Source: Escherichia coli (GTDB lineage: Bacteria; Pseudomonadota; Gammaproteobacteria; Enterobacterales; Enterobacteriaceae). Taken from it: a stretch of DNA of 64,000 nt. Of the stretch, positions 248-64,000 are shown one piece after another (the stretch's first letter is position 1; each line of letters begins with the position of its first letter). Location: NCBI RefSeq assembly GCF_050920415.1, contig NZ_CP169309.1; one strand, 5' to 3'. The notes beneath the pieces were generated by a model. That model did no database searches and was not told the DNA's origin. It saw only the letters and a list, made by a program, of their open reading frames with translations. Both the position numbers and the translations under genes were made by a program.

Positions 248-1900
248 TTACTGCCAGCTCACCTCACCTTTCGGTTCATAGACACTCACATCCAGCGGCG
301 AGCTTTTCTGGATATACGCTTTCAGCACTTCGGCATCAATAAAGCCAGTATTCACATAGCCCGGTTTGTTATCCAGACGCGGATAGCCATCACCGCCAGT
401 GGCATTGAAGTTTAATGTCGCCATACGGTAAGTTTTCGCCGGATCGACCGGTTCGCCTTTGATTTTCAGGTCGTTCAGTTTGCCGTCTTTCGCCACAAAG
501 CTAACGTTGGCAAATTGCGGATAGGCACCAGAATCAGGCTTCATTTGTGCGACGGCGGTCAGGTAATCAATCACCTCTTTACCGGTCATGTCGGCATACA
601 CCACCACATTGCCGAATGGCTGCACTTTCAGCACATTTTTATAGCTGATATCACCTGCTTCGATAGAATCACGAATTCCGCCTCCGCTCATCACCGCAAA
701 GTCGGCACCAGTGCGATCCATTTGTGCTGCCAGAATCAACCGCCCCATATTGGTCTGTACAAAACGCACTTTGCTGCGGTCGCCTTCCAGACGACCATTG
801 GTTTCGCCTATTTTCACTTCCAGCTGCGCTTTGCCTTTGTTCTGGAAAGGTGATAACAGCGAAATCATTTGCTGGTTTTCGGCGATTTCAGGGGTGTAAA
901 GCACACGCTCGCTTTTCCCGTCTTCCCAGGTCACTTTCTTCTTCAGGTTTACTGGAATCAACTGGTAGTTGACCATTTTCATTTCGCCGTTGCGAAACTC
1001 AAAGTCGGCCCGACCAACGTACTTGCCCCACTCATGCGCCTGTACAATCCAGATGCCATTTTGTTGATCCGGTTTGCATGGCGTACCAGGAACGTAATCG
1101 ACCTGTTTTTTATTTTCTGCCGCCATACAGACTGGATCTTGCGAGTGACCTCCGACGATCATCGCCAGCGATCCGGCAGGCAGCGCGCGTGCCATCTCCA
1201 CATCGCCCGGTGCATTAGAGCCGTGCTCACCGTTGTCGTAATGCCCCATATGGGTCGCCGCGATAATAATGTCTGGCTTTTCTGTCTGTTGCAGCTCCTG
1301 AATCACCAGCTTCGCTTCATCAGCGGGCTTACGAAATTCGATATCAGTGAAATATTCCGGATTACCAATTTTGGCTGTGTCATCGGTTGTCAGCCCAATA
1401 ACGGCAATTTTCAGATCCTGACGCTTAAACAACGCCCATGGTTTAAACAGGCGCTCACCAGTGCTTTTTTGGTAGATATTGGCGGAAAGCAACGGGAACT
1501 TAGCCCACTTTTCCTGCTGGCGTAATACGGTGAGCGGGTTATCAAATTCATGATTACCGATCGCCATTGCATCATAGCCCACCAGATTCATACCGCGAAA
1601 ATCAGGTTCGGCATCCTGTAAGTCGGACTCGGGCACGCCAGTATTAATGTCGCCACCGGAAAGTAGCAGCACGCTACCACCTTCAGCCGCAACCTCTTTG
1701 CGAATACCGTCCACCAGCGTTTTTTGCGCCGCCAGACCATATTCGCCATATTCATTACGCCAGAAATGACCATGATGATCATTGGTATGCAGAACTGTAA
1801 TTTTGTAGGTTTTATCCTGCTCATAAGCCAGAGCAGTTTCACTCGCCAGTGTAAATGTGGTTAACAGTACTAACGCCACGCCCCGCTGCAATAATTTCAT
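248..1900 (-). CDS. ushA: UDP-sugar hydrolase / 5'-nucleotidase, periplasmic (550 aa)
   Basis: Full-length ORF with N-terminal signal peptide and metallophosphatase motifs (HTNDHHG, GNHEFD); protein recognised as E. coli UshA. Confidence 0.93.
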   Translation of the reverse strand: MKLLQRGVALVLLTTFTLASETALAYEQDKTYKITVLHTNDHHGHFWRNEYGEYGLAAQKTLVDGIRKEVAAEGGSVLLLSGGDINTGVPESDLQDAEPDFRGMNLVGYDAMAIGNHEFDNPLTVLRQQEKWAKFPLLSANIYQKSTGERLFKPWALFKRQDLKIAVIGLTTDDTAKIGNPEYFTDIEFRKPADEAKLVIQELQQTEKPDIIIAATHMGHYDNGEHGSNAPGDVEMARALPAGSLAMIVGGHSQDPVCMAAENKKQVDYVPGTPCKPDQQNGIWIVQAHEWGKYVGRADFEFRNGEMKMVNYQLIPVNLKKKVTWEDGKSERVLYTPEIAENQQMISLLSPFQNKGKAQLEVKIGETNGRLEGDRSKVRFVQTNMGRLILAAQMDRTGADFAVMSGGGIRDSIEAGDISYKNVLKVQPFGNVVVYADMTGKEVIDYLTAVAQMKPDSGAYPQFANVSFVAKDGKLNDLKIKGEPVDPAKTYRMATLNFNATGGDGYPRLDNKPGYVNTGFIDAEVLKAYIQKSSPLDVSVYEPKGEVSWQ

Positions 1901-2117
1901 ACTTCTCTCCCTGATCAGATTTCAACGTGTTGAAAAATAGTATGACGCGACATCAGAGACAAGTCTGCGTCCGGTGAAGATAAATCTGCATCCAGATTAG
2001 AAATTCTGTATTCAGCGTTGAGACTTCCTTCAGGCGGCGCATACAGGTATGTTAGTCGGGTAATAATCACAAATAAGATCATTCTTTACATCGCAACCCT
2101 GAAAAAGTGACTTTCCT

Positions 2118-3338
2118 ATGGCAATGAGTGAACAAACCCAGCCAGTGGCTGGCGCTGCTGCGTCAACGACCAAGGCCCGAACATCGTTTGGTATTTTAGG
2201 TGCTATCAGCCTCTCACATCTGCTGAACGACATGATCCAATCGCTGATTCTGGCGATTTATCCCCTGCTTCAGTCAGAATTTTCTCTGACATTTATGCAA
2301 ATTGGCATGATAACCCTCACCTTCCAGCTCGCCTCTTCACTATTGCAACCGGTGGTCGGCTACTGGACGGATAAATATCCGATGCCGTGGTCGTTGCCGA
2401 TTGGCATGTGCTTTACCTTGAGCGGTCTGGTGCTGCTGGCGCTGGCGGGCAGTTTTGGCGCAGTTCTGCTGGCGGCGGCGTTGGTCGGCACTGGTTCGTC
2501 GGTCTTTCATCCGGAATCCTCACGCGTGGCCCGAATGGCTTCCGGCGGGCGTCATGGCCTGGCGCAATCTATCTTTCAGGTCGGCGGCAACTTTGGCAGT
2601 TCCCTGGGGCCCTTGCTGGCAGCGGTGATTATCGCGCCTTATGGCAAAGGCAACGTGGCCTGGTTTGTGCTTGCAGCACTGCTGGCAATCGTGGTGCTGG
2701 CGCAAATCAGCCGTTGGTACTCGGCACAGCACCGAATGAATAAGGGCAAACCCAAAGCAACGATTATCAATCCACTGCCGCGCAACAAAGTGGTACTGGC
2801 GGTCAGCATTCTGTTAATCCTGATTTTCTCGAAATATTTCTATATGGCGAGCATCAGCAGCTATTACACCTTTTATCTGATGCAAAAATTCGGATTATCT
2901 ATCCAGAATGCCCAGCTTCATCTGTTTGCATTCCTGTTTGCCGTTGCGGCAGGTACGGTGATCGGCGGGCCTGTAGGGGATAAAATTGGACGGAAATATG
3001 TGATTTGGGGCTCTATCCTCGGCGTTGCGCCGTTTACGCTGATTTTACCCTACGCCACCCTGCACTGGACGGGGGTTTTGACGGTGATTATTGGATTTAT
3101 CCTCGCTTCGGCGTTCTCTGCCATTCTGGTCTACGCTCAGGAGCTACTTCCGGGACGTATCGGTATGGTTTCTGGACTCTTTTTCGGTTTTGCTTTCGGC
3201 ATGGGAGGTCTGGGAGCGGCAGTTCTGGGGCTTATCGCCGACCACACCAGCATTGAGTTAGTCTATAAAATCTGTGCTTTCCTGCCACTATTGGGGATGC
3301 TAACCATATTCCTGCCTGATAACCGGCCTAAAGACTGA
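2118..3338 (+). CDS. fsr: Fosmidomycin resistance MFS transporter (406 aa)
   Basis: 406-aa polytopic membrane ORF, position divergent from ushA as in E. coli. Confidence 0.85.
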   Translation: MAMSEQTQPVAGAAASTTKARTSFGILGAISLSHLLNDMIQSLILAIYPLLQSEFSLTFMQIGMITLTFQLASSLLQPVVGYWTDKYPMPWSLPIGMCFTLSGLVLLALAGSFGAVLLAAALVGTGSSVFHPESSRVARMASGGRHGLAQSIFQVGGNFGSSLGPLLAAVIIAPYGKGNVAWFVLAALLAIVVLAQISRWYSAQHRMNKGKPKATIINPLPRNKVVLAVSILLILIFSKYFYMASISSYYTFYLMQKFGLSIQNAQLHLFAFLFAVAAGTVIGGPVGDKIGRKYVIWGSILGVAPFTLILPYATLHWTGVLTVIIGFILASAFSAILVYAQELLPGRIGMVSGLFFGFAFGMGGLGAAVLGLIADHTSIELVYKICAFLPLLGMLTIFLPDNRPKD

Positions 3339-5253: not shown

Positions 5254-5264
5254 GACATTGATTT

Positions 5265-5446
5265 CATTGCCGGATGCGATGCTGGCGCATCTTATCCGGC
5301 CTACAGGTGCCACCTTCCGAAGGTCGGATAAGGCGTTTATGCCGCATCCGACTGTCATTGCCGGATGCGATGTTGACACATCTTATCCAGCCTACAGGTG
5401 CCATCTTTCGTAGGTCGGATAAGGCGTTTATGCCGCATCCGACTGT
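5265..5446. repeat. Two tandem 91-bp units of REP/BIME-type palindromic repeats between ybaL and gsk
   Basis: Unit beginning CATTGCCGGATGCGATG repeats at 5265 and 5356 with a few substitutions; contains GCCGGATGCG...CGCATCCGGC-type palindromes typical of enterobacterial REP elements. Confidence 0.85.
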
Positions 5447-5461
5447 CATCAGTCCGATAAC

Positions 5462-16515: not shown

Positions 16516-16677
16516 ATGTCACTGGAAAATGCCCCTGACGATGTCAAACTGGCTGTCGATTTGATTGTGCTGCTGGAAGAAAATCAGATCCCAGCACGCA
16601 CCGTGCTGCGCGCGCTGGATATTGTAAAACGCGATTATGAAAAGAAATTAACGCGCGATGATGAGGCGGAAAAGTGA
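16516..16677 (+). CDS. ybaM: Small protein YbaM (53 aa)
   Basis: ATG 14 bp after the priC stop; 53 codons ([23 protein letters not shown]...). Confidence 0.65.
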
Positions 16678-16730
16678 GAAATAAATGGGGCCGCTAAATG
16701 TCCCCTAAGATTGCGGGCAAACGCAAAACT

Positions 16731-16835
16731 GCCTGATGCGCTACGCTTATCAGGCCTACACCGCTCCTGCAATATATTGAATTCTTGCGGTTTCGTAGGC
16801 CGGAGAAGGCGGTCACGCCGCATCCGGCATGAACA
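16731..16835. repeat. REP element pair between ybaM and mscK, flanked by two copies of a GGGGC..CTAAATGTC..CCCC motif (16687-16705 and 16859-16880)
   Basis: CTGATGCGCTACGCTTATCAGGCCTACA and GTAGGCCGGAGAAGGCG...GCCGCATCCGGCA palindromic units read directly. Confidence 0.8.
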
Positions 16836-16888
16836 ACGCGCACTTTGTCAGTAATCTCGGGGCAACTAAATGTCGCCCCCTTTGGTTA

Positions 16889-19800
16889 TTACCCTACCGC
16901 TGGTGTTGGATCGTCGCCTTTGTAGTCGCGTTTCACTTCCGTCACTTCATCGCCCTTCTCGTTGTGCAGATGCACTTCAAGCTGGTTAAAGGCAATGTTG
17001 ATGTCGTTTTCACGGCACAGCTGATCAATAGTACGGTTCAGCTCATCAACAGTACGACTGCGGTCACGCAGTTCACGCACGTAAAGGCGCAGCTCGTGAT
17101 CCAACGTGCTGGCACCAAACGCCGTAAAGAAGACTTCCGGCATGGGTTCGTGCATCACCCTTGGGTGCTCAGTCGCCGCCTTCAGCAACACTTTACGCAC
17201 TTTTTCCAGATCGGAGCCATAGGCCACGCCCAGGCGGATCACCAGACGCGTGGTGGTGTCGGTTAACGACCAGTTGATCAGACGCTCGGTAACAAACGCT
17301 TTGTTCGGGATGATCACTTCTTTGCGATCGAAATCGGTAATCGTTGTCGCACGAATACGGATCTTACTGACCGTCCCAGAGTAGGTACCAATGGTTACCG
17401 TGTCGCCAATGCGCACCGGACGTTCGAACAGGATAATCAAACCGGAGACGAAGTTACCGAAGATCTCTTGTAAACCAAAACCAAGACCTACGGATAATGC
17501 CGCCGCCAGCCACTGGAGTTTATCCCACGAGACACCCAGCGATCCGAACACCGTCATCGCACCAACGGCAATAATGATGTAGTTAAGGATGGTAGTAATG
17601 GCATACGACGCGCCCTGGCGCATATTCAGTCGCGAGAGCACCAATACTTCCAGCAAACCAGGCAGGTTGCGAATCAACGCCCAAGCTACCATTGAGGCGA
17701 TAATCGCAAACAACAGACTGCCCATGGTGACGTTTTTCACCACCGCAGCGCCAGCTTCAGTGCCGTTGTAATGCCAGAGCGTGATGCTGTCGAGATAGCT
17801 GAAAACGGTGATCAAATCTGACCAAATTGCCCAGAACATGACACCGAACAGCGCAAACATCAGCAACATAGTAATACGCAGCGTCTGTTGGTTAACCTGC
17901 TCCAGTGCAATGGTAGGTTCTTCCGGCGGTTCGGCCCCTTCTGCGCCCTCTTTCACCAGATTCTGTCGACGCGCCAGCGCACGACGCCAGGCGATACGCC
18001 GCGCCGCTACGCTTAAGCCGCGCAATACCGTCTGGTACAGCAGGTTCCAGATAATCACCAGATACACGGTTTCAATCCAACGTCCGGAGAGGCGCAGTGT
18101 GGTGTAGAAATAACCCGTGGCGGTCAGCACCATCAACGCAATCGGGATTATCGACAGTATGGTAATGGTGACAAGTCGCATGGTGTGCGACTCTTTATCA
18201 CGCCAGCTTTCGCGGCACATTGGCCATACCAGGAAGGCAATCAGCAGCAGGTTGAAGAAAATCATCGCCTGCCCCAGCACATCATCCATCAGATGCAGCG
18301 GGGAAAGTTCTGCCACCACAGACCAGAAATGGATAGGCAGCAACGCGAGACTGATGCGGACAATTTGCCGACGCCAGTGGCTGGTCTGCTGTTCCGGCAT
18401 GCCGAAGTGACGCACGGCAACACCGTTTTTCTCCAGTACCTTCCAGCACAGGCCAAACACCAGCCAGAAAATCGCCAGTTTTTTGCTGAACGACCATAGC
18501 AGTTCGCTGATGTTGAGTTGCATGGTCAACAGAATCAGACCAACCGCAAGAATAATCAGACATACTGGCAGTGCGCGAATCAGGTCGATAAGGATCGCTT
18601 TTGGTGTGTTGAGCTGGCTGTCGTTACGCAGGGAGCCCACAGCGGAAGCCAGTTTTTGTTGATACGCTTTCAGCCAGCCCAGACGCCAGTGGATCAGCCC
18701 GGCAATTAATAGCAGTGGTAAACCAGCGAGGAAAGCGATAAAGACGGCAGGCCAGGCTTTTTCCCAGTTTACCGTGATCTTCATCGACTTAAATTCATCT
18801 TTCAGCGTTTGTGGGAACGCTTTGATCCAGTCCCAGTCCATTGGACGGTTACTGTTCACCCAAAAGATTTGCTGAGTCAGGATGGATTTCAGGTTTTTCG
18901 ACACACTCATTAACTGCTGCTGGTTGATTTGCAGGTTAATGGCCATCATCAATTGGTTACCCAACTGTTTGTTAAGCTGATCCAGCAATTCGCGACGCAT
19001 ATCAACCACTTGCAATAATGCATCGTGAACTTCGCTGTTGACTTCGTTGGTGTGACCTTCTTCCAGTTTGTTGACGAACGCATCGCTCTGGAAGAGTGCA
19101 TCACGCTGCTGGTTAACTTCAAACTGTTCGAGACGCAAATCCGCGATGCGGTTGGTCATGTTTTCCAGTTCATCCGCCGAGGGCAGCGTTTGTTGTTGCT
19201 GGTAAAGGATACGAGACAACAGCAGGCTGCCCTTCAGGACGGCAATCTGCTCTTTAATATTTCGTTCCGATTGCAGCGCCCGCTCAAGCCAGTTTTTGAC
19301 TTTAATGTTTTGCTGCATTAGCTGATTACCGTTTTCAGTCGCGGTAATCAGACGCTGACTCAACTGCTGGTTAATTTCCAGTTCCTGTTTCACCAGAGGA
19401 TTAGCCTGAATACGTGCAGCTTCATCCGGAGAGACGGCTTCCTGCGCCGTTTTTTCGGTTAAGGTCAGGCGCTTACTGTTTACCGCTTCTTGCAACAGTT
19501 GCAACTGGTGTTCCAGACGAGCACTGTTCGCCGTCACGTAATCACGCTGCTTTTGCAAGGTATCCTGTAAGACGGTGTTCCCTTCCAGGCTTTTTCGTTG
19601 CTGGTCAATCTCAGCATTCAGCAAAACCTGCTGGGCCTGCATCAACACTTTCTGGCTGGGACGTAAGGCAGTATCGCCAACATCAGTGCCATCCAGGCGG
19701 CTGCGAATTTGTTGCAGCTGCTGCGAAGCGTTATACATCGCATTTTGCACGCGTTCGGGCTGCGTCTGTAACGAAACCAGCTGGCTGTTATAAGACGCCA

Positions 19801-20251
19801 GATCGTTTTGTGCGTTTTGCAAATCGTCCAGCGCCTGGGCAACGCGAGTTTCCAGCTGGCGCAACGAAAGCGTGCTCAGAATTTTGCGCGTTTCTTCGTC
19901 GTTATCGACATCGCTAAGTGCTGTTAACGCCGCGGTCGCCTGACGCATTTTTTCCGGCGCTTCAGCGACTTTTTGCCGTAGCTGAACTGTCTCTTCTTTT
20001 ATGCGATCGATTTTATCGAGGGTGGCTAATGTATCTGTCAGATCCTGCTGCACCAGTTTGTCCTGAGCAGAAAGATCTTTTTGTTTATTCAGTGAGTCAA
20101 GTTGTGCCTGCAGGTCCGCTTTTGTCGGCAGATCACCATTCGATGGCGCCCGCGCAAACGCCGCATTCTGGCATAACAAGACCAAAACAAAAGCAATGAA
20201 TGCTGAAAAAACAAAATGCCGTGATCGTTTGTAATACTGGAACATAGTCAT
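16889..20251 (-). CDS. mscK: Potassium-dependent mechanosensitive channel MscK/KefA (1120 aa)
   Basis: Signal peptide, long coiled-coil periplasmic region, multiple TM helices and C-terminal MscS-like domain. Confidence 0.9.
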   Translation of the reverse strand: MTMFQYYKRSRHFVFSAFIAFVLVLLCQNAAFARAPSNGDLPTKADLQAQLDSLNKQKDLSAQDKLVQQDLTDTLATLDKIDRIKEETVQLRQKVAEAPEKMRQATAALTALSDVDNDEETRKILSTLSLRQLETRVAQALDDLQNAQNDLASYNSQLVSLQTQPERVQNAMYNASQQLQQIRSRLDGTDVGDTALRPSQKVLMQAQQVLLNAEIDQQRKSLEGNTVLQDTLQKQRDYVTANSARLEHQLQLLQEAVNSKRLTLTEKTAQEAVSPDEAARIQANPLVKQELEINQQLSQRLITATENGNQLMQQNIKVKNWLERALQSERNIKEQIAVLKGSLLLSRILYQQQQTLPSADELENMTNRIADLRLEQFEVNQQRDALFQSDAFVNKLEEGHTNEVNSEVHDALLQVVDMRRELLDQLNKQLGNQLMMAINLQINQQQLMSVSKNLKSILTQQIFWVNSNRPMDWDWIKAFPQTLKDEFKSMKITVNWEKAWPAVFIAFLAGLPLLLIAGLIHWRLGWLKAYQQKLASAVGSLRNDSQLNTPKAILIDLIRALPVCLIILAVGLILLTMQLNISELLWSFSKKLAIFWLVFGLCWKVLEKNGVAVRHFGMPEQQTSHWRRQIVRISLALLPIHFWSVVAELSPLHLMDDVLGQAMIFFNLLLIAFLVWPMCRESWRDKESHTMRLVTITILSIIPIALMVLTATGYFYTTLRLSGRWIETVYLVIIWNLLYQTVLRGLSVAARRIAWRRALARRQNLVKEGAEGAEPPEEPTIALEQVNQQTLRITMLLMFALFGVMFWAIWSDLITVFSYLDSITLWHYNGTEAGAAVVKNVTMGSLLFAIIASMVAWALIRNLPGLLEVLVLSRLNMRQGASYAITTILNYIIIAVGAMTVFGSLGVSWDKLQWLAAALSVGLGFGLQEIFGNFVSGLIILFERPVRIGDTVTIGTYSGTVSKIRIRATTITDFDRKEVIIPNKAFVTERLINWSLTDTTTRLVIRLGVAYGSDLEKVRKVLLKAATEHPRVMHEPMPEVFFTAFGASTLDHELRLYVRELRDRSRTVDELNRTIDQLCRENDINIAFNQLEVHLHNEKGDEVTEVKRDYKGDDPTPAVG

Positions 20252-63781: not shown

Positions 63782-63795
63782 AAAACGAGGCGAAT

Positions 63796-63890
63796 TGCCT
63801 GTTGCGCTACGCTTTTCAGGCCTACAAAGTTCCTGAGTGACAAATCTTTGTAGGCCGAATCAGACGTTCATGCCGCATCTGACATGAACA
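63796..63890. repeat. REP-type palindromic repeats between yajR and the downstream convergent gene
   Basis: TGCGCTACGCTTTTCAGGCCTACA and CTTTGTAGGCC...GCCGCATCTGACATGAAC units, including a 10-bp inverted repeat GCCTACAAAG/CTTTGTAGGC. Confidence 0.8.
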
Positions 63891-63908
63891 AAGCGCAGGT
63901 TGTCGCGA

Positions 63909-64000
63909 TTAATCGCGGAAGTTTTTGAACTGGAACGGCTGACCCAGATCGCCACCACGTACCATCGCCATGACAGCCTGCAAATCATCACGAGATTTGC
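63909..64000 (-). CDS. 3' end of a convergent CDS truncated by the window end; by K-12 synteny the position of yajQ
   Basis: Minus-strand frame ends ...DLQAVMAMVRGGDLGQPFQFKNFRD then stop at 63909-63911; only about 30 codons visible. Confidence 0.5.
   Translation of the reverse strand, partial: KSRDDLQAVMAMVRGGDLGQPFQFKNFRD

Follow-up and report, generated by a model that had tools for sequence, protein, structure and literature searches.

We analysed a 64,000-nt stretch of an Escherichia coli genome (RefSeq assembly GCF_050920415.1, contig NZ_CP169309.1), referred to as the window, in which a pair of repetitive extragenic palindromic (REP) elements lies between the genes rsmS (ybaM) and mscK and is flanked by two similar hairpin motifs, here called H1 and H2. 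These motifs are probably two copies of one ancestral stem-loop, the shared bidirectional terminator of rsmS and mscK, which was duplicated when a bacterial interspersed mosaic element of type 1 (BIME-1) inserted at this site. The locus itself is ordinary, consisting of a known repeat and known genes; its interest lies in a target duplication, measured by the structure of the target, that is found around most BIME-1 copies. The duplication is coupled to BIME-1, specific to each locus and delimited by the target stem-loop.

Two copies of one hairpin directly abut a complete BIME-1

The intergenic spacer between rsmS and mscK spans 211 bp. As a preliminary description of the sequence had proposed, the genes are convergent, with rsmS on the + strand and mscK on the - strand according to both the open reading frame (ORF) list and the annotation of near-identical loci; a 601-bp stretch around the locus is 100% identical to E. 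coli MFDS1022581. The same description had reported two motif copies in direct orientation that bracket the REP pair, and both strings are indeed present, with the REPs at 16730-16759 and 16795-16829 between them. H1 (GGGGCCGCTAAATGTCCCC, 19 nt; supported by repeat search and shuffles) occupies positions 16687-16705 as first given, and H2 (GGGGCAACTAAATGTCGCCCC, 21 nt, + strand; supported by folding and by a scan and Term-seq data of K-12) occupies 16859-16879, its originally proposed end at 16880 having taken in one extra C. The two copies are ungapped direct repeats with 84% identity and a start-to-start distance of 172, the 3' arm of H2 being 2 bases longer than that of H1, and each copy is located 9 nt from the adjoining stop codon. 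Their core GGGGCNNCTAAATGTC has exactly 2 matches in the 64-kb window, where 0.01 would be expected, and 2 matches were reached in 0 of 100 shuffles.

The segment between the two copies (16706-16858, 153 bp) is exactly one complete BIME-1, composed of an outer motif, a Y REP, an L linker, an inverted Z1 REP and a second outer motif. The left outer motif TAAGATTGCGGGCAAACGCAAAAC (16706-16729, + strand; family consensus T/GAGACTGATGACAAACGCAAAAC, the slash marking the junction) and the right outer motif TGAACAACGCGCACTTTGTCAGTAATCTC (16830-16858, + strand), which repeats the left one imperfectly in inverted orientation, were both placed by paralogue alignment and by junction counts (over 44 loci for the left motif), with boundaries accurate to +/- 1-2 nt. 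The Y-type REP TGCCTGATGCGCTACGCTTATCAGGCCTAC (16730-16759, + strand) is invariant in four paralogues and forms the inverted-repeat partner of the Z1-type REP (16795-16829, - strand; GTAGGCCGGAGAAGGCGGTCACGCCGCATCCGGCA when read on the + strand), which was delimited by repeat search and paralogue alignment; in three paralogous BIME-1 copies, the REPs are near-identical to these two. The L linker (16760-16794, + strand) contains a core, TGCAATATATTGAATT, at 16768-16783 that is identical in all paralogues and resembles a binding site for integration host factor (IHF); an IHF site is predicted here, and IHF binding of the BIME-1 L linker has been reported (PMC3333891). The 153-nt segment aligns end to end (positions ~1-152, ~88% identity) with BIME-1 paralogues, such a paralogue being its best match in E. 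coli genomes without an element at rsmS/mscK. When aligned with the BIME-1 copies at srmB/yfiE, tkt and fepA/entD, the segment loses similarity at the inner edges of H1 and H2; the two motifs therefore belong to the flanking DNA and lie outside the repeat family.

Every testable defining feature of BIME-1 was found at this locus, including the Y/Z1 doublet, the linker sequence, a size of 153 bp, a position between the stop codons of two convergent genes, and presence/absence variation (3880 genomes with the long allele and about 1545 without the element); the element is an ordinary member of its family. Presence/absence polymorphism of BIME-1 among E. coli isolates was already known (Bachellier 1997, as cited by later work), and so was its placement at the 3' ends of transcription units, as stated in the title of Boccard & Prentki 1993. 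A scan against Rfam returned only sub-threshold, REP-derived matches (naRNA4 at 29 bits, compared to a gathering score of 59.5), and the motifs are therefore not explained by any known RNA family.

Alleles lacking the element carry a single hairpin

The long allele is present in 3,880 of 5,425 E. coli genomes, and the other ~28% are about 170 bp shorter, bar rare alleles disrupted by insertion sequences (IS). In the short alleles of O157:H7 8368, OV24 and EcPF18, the spacer measures 38 nt and holds one hairpin, arranged as AAAAATAAA-GGGCGGCATCACTGTCGCCC-TTTATTGTCC, which joins the left flank of H1 to the right flank of H2. One suggestion made from the window alone was that the motif pair is a duplication scar left by REP insertion, with a single copy marking the empty site in genomes that lack the REPs. 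This is what the comparison revealed, with the qualification that the short E. coli allele has diverged in sequence, and the suggestion is further strengthened by the exact fit of one BIME-1 between the copies, by a like signature at 27 of 44 BIME-1 loci and by exact empty sites at two more polymorphic loci (see below). In an even sample of 40 out of 5462 records, no REP-less genome was found that kept both copies.

The single hairpin of the short allele has fold energies of -21 kcal/mol (+ strand, z -7.2) and -17 kcal/mol (- strand, z -5.1); flanked by an A-tract on its left and a T-tract on its right, it constitutes a bidirectional intrinsic terminator. The window keeps the A-tract to the left of H1 and the T-tract to the right of H2, and the terminator is thus split into the order A-tract, hairpin, BIME-1, hairpin, T-tract. 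The A-rich tract GAAATAAAT (16678-16686), which on the - strand follows the hairpin as AUUUAUUUC, has its homologue in the AAAAATAAA tract of the allele with one hairpin, and the T-rich tail CTTTGGTTA (16880-16888, + strand), which reaches the mscK stop codon, is homologous to the TTTATTGTCC tail of that allele. The two tracts represent the left and right halves, respectively, of the terminator that was once bidirectional.

Between the short and long alleles, the hairpin loop and the last ~12 codons of rsmS have diverged (...QSDETSQSE against ...TRDDEAEK before the stop), within flanks that are 95-97% identical. The short allele is therefore old or imported. We also considered that it could be a recent excision product of the long allele; this was ruled out, as neither the loop (ATCAC against TAAAT) nor the rsmS tail can be obtained by a crossover between H1 and H2. 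The divergent patch itself (window positions 16640-16677, compared to positions 490-531 of the short-allele stretches) shows roughly one-third divergence, with rsmS products of 53 aa and 54 aa, respectively. The short-allele tail resembles those of Salmonella and Citrobacter (...SQTE and ...SQTD before the stop), and the patch may be an ancient polymorphism or an import.

BIME-1 with both hairpin copies was also found in E. albertii, E. whittamii, Escherichia sp. E1V33 and Escherichia sp. MOD1-EC7003, with the position of H1 conserved in all four, so the insertion is old. Outside the genus, a single related hairpin, GGGGCGGAATCTCCGCCGCCCC, was found in Klebsiella at a distance of 8 nt from the mscK stop codon. 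Salmonella, Citrobacter and Klebsiella carry an rpn-type gene (Pfam Transposase_31 / HTH_Rpn_C), either intact or as a remnant, between rsmS and mscK; direct adjacency of rsmS and mscK therefore appears to be Escherichia-specific. Because this gene intervenes, the outgroup sites cannot be used directly as empty sites, and only the Klebsiella hairpin is informative.

Hairpin duplications surround most BIME-1 copies

A search for the linker core, with each species represented by one genome, retrieved 110 related stretches, mainly from Escherichia species and Pseudocitrobacter, the copies of the latter being near-identical and apparently young. The BIME-1 copies were oriented, their ends were set by alignment to an arm consensus, and the 32 nt outside each end were compared to each other; copies with incomplete arms were left out of these flank statistics, and 44 independent complete loci were kept. 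As a control, we scored 4,080 flank pairs taken from different loci, which gave a mean of 4.9, a maximum of 11 and a 99th percentile of 8.0. The alignment of left and right flanks exceeded this 99th percentile at 27 of the 44 loci, where about 0.4 would be expected. At these 27 loci the repeats touch the element (left gap of 0 in 19 and of at most 2 in 26; right offset of 0 in 23), are 11-28 nt long with a median of 20, and fold as hairpins, averaging -11.6 kcal/mol compared to -2.9 for shuffles. An A-tract outside the left copy and/or a T-tract outside the right copy accompanies them in 23 of the 27, and after extension by identity the duplicated segment coincided foot to foot (within 0-2 nt) with a palindrome in 23 of 26 loci. 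The ends of the element are sharply conserved across the 44 loci, reading T/GAGACTGATGACAAAC ... TTTGTCAACAATCTGA/ (T/GAGACTG...AATCTGA/). Direct repeats that abut both ends, with one copy at the empty site, are the pattern of a target-site duplication, and the fixed length of transposase-type duplications is replaced here by a range of 11-28 nt that tracks the size of the palindrome.

The flanking hairpins are locus-specific, which bears on the idea that the motif is an extended terminal part of BIME-1 that was carried along with the element. The direct contact between motif copies and element would suit such an origin, but other BIME-1 copies are flanked by wholly different hairpins, the motif occurs nowhere else in the window, and empty sites retain the hairpin; we regard this idea as already refuted and its probability as negligible.

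Two other polymorphic loci reveal the empty site directly. At srmB/yfiE, where the filled site reads AATGCCGGGTTTAAGCCTGGTATT, BIME-1, AATGCCGGGTTTAATCCCGACATT, the element is present in 2,524 E. coli genomes, and the others are 176 bp shorter and carry one perfect hairpin (...CTCAATGCCGGGTTTAAGCCCGGCATTATTTTTATCC). At tkt, BIME-1 has AAGGGCCGCTTTCGCGGCCCTT on either side, and prohibitin/tkt alleles with 0, 1 and 2 BIME-1 copies read H, H-B-H and H-B-H-B-H (H, hairpin; B, BIME-1), with the hairpin AAGGGCCGCTTTCGCGGCCCTT throughout. These alleles also speak to the scenario in which the terminator was tandemly duplicated beforehand and BIME-1 was later inserted between the copies in an unrelated event. 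At a single old locus such as rsmS/mscK, sequence alone does not reveal which event came first, which leaves room for that order, but a single hairpin, and never two, is found in the empty alleles of three polymorphic loci, and the repeats exactly abut the element ends at 27 of 44 loci, a coincidence that unrelated events would not be expected to produce. We therefore consider a prior tandem duplication highly improbable.

In the filled srmB/yfiE allele of E. coli, both hairpin copies carry two stem-weakening substitutions each relative to the perfect hairpin of the empty site. A single crossover between these mutated copies cannot restore a perfect hairpin, and the empty allele is therefore not derived from the filled one; by the same comparison, the copies appear to drift after duplication. 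Such decay suggests relaxed constraint on each copy once two are present, and H1 of the window shows a like decay.

Some further linker-core matches stand apart from these loci. In Escherichia sp. MOD1-EC7003 and E. sp. E1V33 the core occurs in tandem arrays with periods of about 115, 119, 162-169 or 238 bp, which may be atypical BIMEs or amplifications of the H-B-H-B-H kind. BIME-1 copies of E. coli type were also retrieved from short contigs of assemblies labelled Bacteroides metagenome-assembled genome (MAG), Desulfosporosinus, Methylobacterium and Collinsella MAG, for which enterobacterial contamination or mis-binning is the simplest explanation.

H2 terminates rsmS transcripts in K-12 and H1 has decayed

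H1 is decayed, its 3' arm being short by 2 nt, with a stem of only 4-5 bp left. Its folds of -6.7 and -6.9 kcal/mol are no better than those of shuffles on either strand (z 0.01 and -0.37); in the direction of mscK, that is on the - strand, the U-rich AUUUAUUUC is present but follows a hairpin of only -6.9 kcal/mol (z -0.37). H1 is not an effective mscK terminator. H2 has a stem with a 5-bp G/C core and 2 inner pairs around one A.C mismatch, and folds in context with -15.4 kcal/mol on the + strand (z -3.1; also -16.2, z -3.5), followed by CUUUGGUUA. The K-12 version of H2, with a perfect 8-bp stem, a loop of 5 nt and CTTTCGTTTT as its tail, was flagged as terminator-like by our scan.

For K-12 MG1655, the Term-seq data published by Adams et al. 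(2021; PMC7815308, Supplementary file 1) include 3' ends at 489902/489903 (-), within the T-rich tract, with scores of 336140 and 226826 in two growth conditions. The end sequence, ...AATCTCGGGGCAACTAAATGTTGCCCCCTTTCG, stops 6 nt after the H2 stem, so the rsmS-direction transcript crosses H1 and BIME-1 and ends at H2. Owing to its distance of >50 nt from the rsmS stop codon, this end was classed by the pipeline of Adams et al. as "antisense to mscK". In the direction of mscK, those data list no 3' end on the + strand between 480636 and 497940, and a Rho termination region is given at 490200 (+), antisense to ybaM (Rho score 3.18, p 1.1e-5; PMC7815308, Supplementary file 2); mscK transcription therefore reads through both hairpins and BIME-1. 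H2 is thus the stem-loop of the rsmS-direction intrinsic terminator in K-12, and we infer, with some caution because H2 of the window differs by one A.C mismatch and slightly in its tail, that it probably acts likewise in the window strain. The preliminary description had offered paired terminators for the two convergent genes as a second reading and RNA 3'-end mapping as a check: the K-12 data supply an rsmS-direction end after H2, and this half of the reading holds, whereas H1 is a weak hairpin with no mapped 3' end, termination in the mscK direction being Rho-dependent further on.

These results also weigh on the possibility that H1 and H2 are two independently evolved terminators, one for each convergent gene, with a resemblance that is convergent or due to chance. 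Both are hairpins with a GC stem at 9 nt from a stop codon, and H2 coincides with a mapped 3' end in K-12, which speaks for this possibility. Nevertheless, the two share an unpaired loop, CTAAATGT, that the structure does not demand, only 0.01 matches to their common pattern would arise by chance, H1 is not credible as a terminator and has no mapped 3' end, and each T-tract stands across BIME-1 from the gene it would serve. The one-hairpin alleles refute independent origins in practice, and we give this explanation scarcely any weight.

For annotation, this means that the rsmS mRNA has a 3' untranslated region (UTR) of roughly 200 nt that contains BIME-1, and that mscK is without an efficient intrinsic terminator in BIME-bearing strains. 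Two further points emerged from the Term-seq data. The score at 489902/489903 (336140; window position ~16885) is several-fold to >200-fold above the neighboring entries shown, which might reflect a stable RNA derived from the 3' UTR, with BIME-1 inside it and its end at H2, bearing in mind that the Rfam naRNA4 matches are weak. Downstream of adk in K-12 (497820-497950), a boxC-like repeat is followed by a fragment that resembles the right outer motif of BIME-1 (...CTTATCAGCAATCTCA) and then by a hairpin, GGCCGGATATTCATTCGGCC, with a T-run; this hairpin corresponds to an "orphan" Term-seq 3' end at 497940 (+), and the sequence is absent from the window strain.

A tentative insertion mechanism and its main rival

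A mechanism that would account for a duplication of exactly one stem-loop begins with breaks at equivalent positions relative to the hairpin, one on each strand, at its two feet. In duplex coordinates such breaks would be staggered by the length of the palindrome; BIME-1 would be joined to the broken ends, and fill-in of the single-stranded gaps would duplicate the whole hairpin. The net effect would be a target-site duplication with a length set by the hairpin, that is by DNA structure, and not by an enzyme. The staggered breaks are inferred, and the enzyme behind them may be TnpA-REP or a host activity; TnpA-REP, the REP-associated HUH nuclease, is the obvious candidate for making the breaks. 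The flanking repeats would permit later loss or tandem amplification of BIME-1 by recombination, which fits the series of 0, 1 and 2 copies at tkt. We tentatively extend this to the element as a whole: BIME-1, the main REPIN of E. coli, might spread by integrating at intrinsic-terminator hairpins through breaks at both feet of the stem-loop, so that the entire terminator is duplicated over a variable length measured by its structure. In our estimation this general statement is an appreciable possibility, though the odds do not favor it.

Its main rival is a replication error, in which a fork or nascent strand that has stalled at the terminator hairpin jumps to BIME-1, itself a long palindrome, as a new template and, after copying it, returns upstream and recopies the hairpin. 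A duplication length that varies (11-28 nt) and tracks the hairpin is unlike the fixed stagger of a transposase and speaks for such switching, as do the loci with only 3-6 nt repeats or a one-sided hairpin, and the junctions mismatch the chemistry of TnpA-REP. On the other hand, the ends of the element are sharp and the same in 44 loci, as expected of end-specific processing and not of switching driven by microhomology, and homology between the hairpins and the BIME-1 ends is not visible. We consider template switching rather unlikely, yet it deserves more consideration than any other rival.

Several observations weigh against the duplication of a terminator hairpin upon insertion, or against the mechanism proposed for it. 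Of the BIME-1 loci analyzed, 17 of 44 are without a clear duplication, about 10 of these 17 still having a strong hairpin directly against one end. At rsmS/mscK, the E. coli empty allele, with its strongly different loop and rsmS 3' end, is not the literal precursor of the long allele, so the polarity of insertion at this locus rests on the general BIME-1 pattern and the outgroup hairpin. Neither H1 nor H2 was flagged when the window was put through the simple terminator scan; a single A.C mismatch is all that makes H2 of the window strain fail, and its K-12 counterpart passes. Among six Escherichia alleles, covariation in H2 (GG/CC, AA/CC, AA/TC, AA/TT) included two pairs with GC/AU exchange and was not significant, as 206 of 500 shuffles reached the observed value. 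With respect to the enzyme, the IS200/IS605-type enzymes to whose family TnpA-REP belongs make no target duplication, and in vitro the attacking 3' base must be C for TnpA-REP; the base that adjoins the left end of the element is T in 34 of 44 loci. Direct strand transfer by TnpA-REP was accordingly tried as an explanation and found unsupported: the 3'-C rule does not match the junctions, so a simple strand-transfer model does not fit.

Other features of the window

The flanking genes were assigned from the ORF list and from annotation. The coding sequence (CDS) of rsmS (16516-16677, + strand; stop TGA at 16675-16677) encodes 53 aa and is supported by the RefSeq annotation of identical and near-identical loci and by Pfam DUF2496 on homologues; the mscK CDS (16889-20251, - strand) encodes 1120 aa, its stop TAA being the complement of 16889-16891. 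A 17-nt inverted repeat with 82% complementarity connects the 3' coding ends of rsmS (16655-16671, GCGATGATGAGGCGGAA) and mscK (16937-16953, TTCCGTCACTTCATCGC), and a second one pairs 16624-16637 with 16923-16936; either may be due to chance.

Two further REP groups are present in the window. A BIME-2-like array occupies 5262-5450, directly downstream of a + strand stop codon; its four REPs alternate in orientation and have a period of some 91 bp. At 63785-63925 there is a degenerate REP doublet with a truncated left outer motif and a shortened linker that is without the IHF core; its right flank is a hairpin, CGCGATTAATCGCG, followed by a T-run, and a flank duplication is not visible.

The rsmS/mscK locus of E. 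coli O111:H8 strain 9662 (retrieved stretch 1800-3308) is disrupted by an IS110-family element within the left (Y) REP, with the junction ...TTATCAGGCCT/TGTATTATCCC; next comes an IS3-family element, and adjacency to the mscK side is lost. IS110-family elements are known to target REPs.

Significance and comparison with known systems

REP and BIME sequences make up about 1% of the E. coli genome, and a reproducible insertion signature, in which the target is a terminator stem-loop and the duplication is that stem-loop, would make the question of their spread testable. The literature on REPs and REP-associated tyrosine transposases (RAYTs) calls the mechanism of dissemination unknown, uses the IS200/IS605 family, which makes no duplications, as its reference model, and in 2021 still termed the dissemination of REPs and BIMEs unresolved; population models assume untargeted REP insertion, in which the copying of an element into a gene destroys that gene. 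If our interpretation is correct, the mode of insertion differs from the no-duplication IS200/IS605 paradigm assumed for RAYT-mobilized REPs. It would explain the harmless placement of BIME-1 at the 3' ends of genes, with termination left intact, as well as its transcription into 3' UTRs and its clean loss and tandem amplification through the flanking repeats, and it may be previously undescribed. We found no description of hairpin duplications flanking BIME-1 in the accessible REP/RAYT literature, with the 1990s work (Bachellier 1997, Boccard & Prentki 1993, Gilson 1991, Clement 1999) outside that scope; their novelty is provisional because these older papers may already describe them.

Compared to the family as described, BIME-1 (also RIB or RIP; the Y-L-Z1 enterobacterial REP doublet, or REPIN in the terms of Bertels and Rainey), the element at rsmS/mscK is no different; what the locus adds is the flanking duplication of the target hairpin. 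The one-hairpin allele has the textbook layout of a bidirectional intrinsic terminator, with an A-tract, a GC-rich stem-loop and a T-tract between stop codons that are 38 nt apart. In contrast, the window holds two unidirectional halves, each across BIME-1 from the gene it serves, so that BIME-1 becomes part of the 3' UTR, and only the half on the rsmS side (H2) is still functional.

In its geometry, the nearest precedent for staggered integration that duplicates more than a typical target site is spacer integration into CRISPR arrays. There, Cas1-Cas2 attacks opposite strands at both ends of a palindromic repeat, and gap filling then duplicates the whole repeat. The resulting order of hairpin, insert and hairpin is the same as for BIME-1, which may be taken as an analogy only: the enzymes and the inserted DNA are unrelated, and nothing in our analysis ties BIME-1 to Cas proteins.

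IS200/IS605 elements, the relatives of the TnpA-REP/RAYT family, have subterminal hairpins that REP hairpins resemble, and TnpA-REP cleaves next to REPs. However, this family inserts 3' of a short target sequence without duplication, whereas BIME-1 has long flanking duplications at 27 of 44 loci and a junction base that departs from the 3'-C rule. With the target-site duplications of miniature inverted-repeat transposable elements (MITEs) and DDE transposons, BIME-1 shares direct repeats that abut imperfect terminal inverted repeats and a single copy at the empty site. It differs from them in that the duplication, at 11-28 nt, equals the target palindrome in length, and in that its target is a structure and not a sequence.

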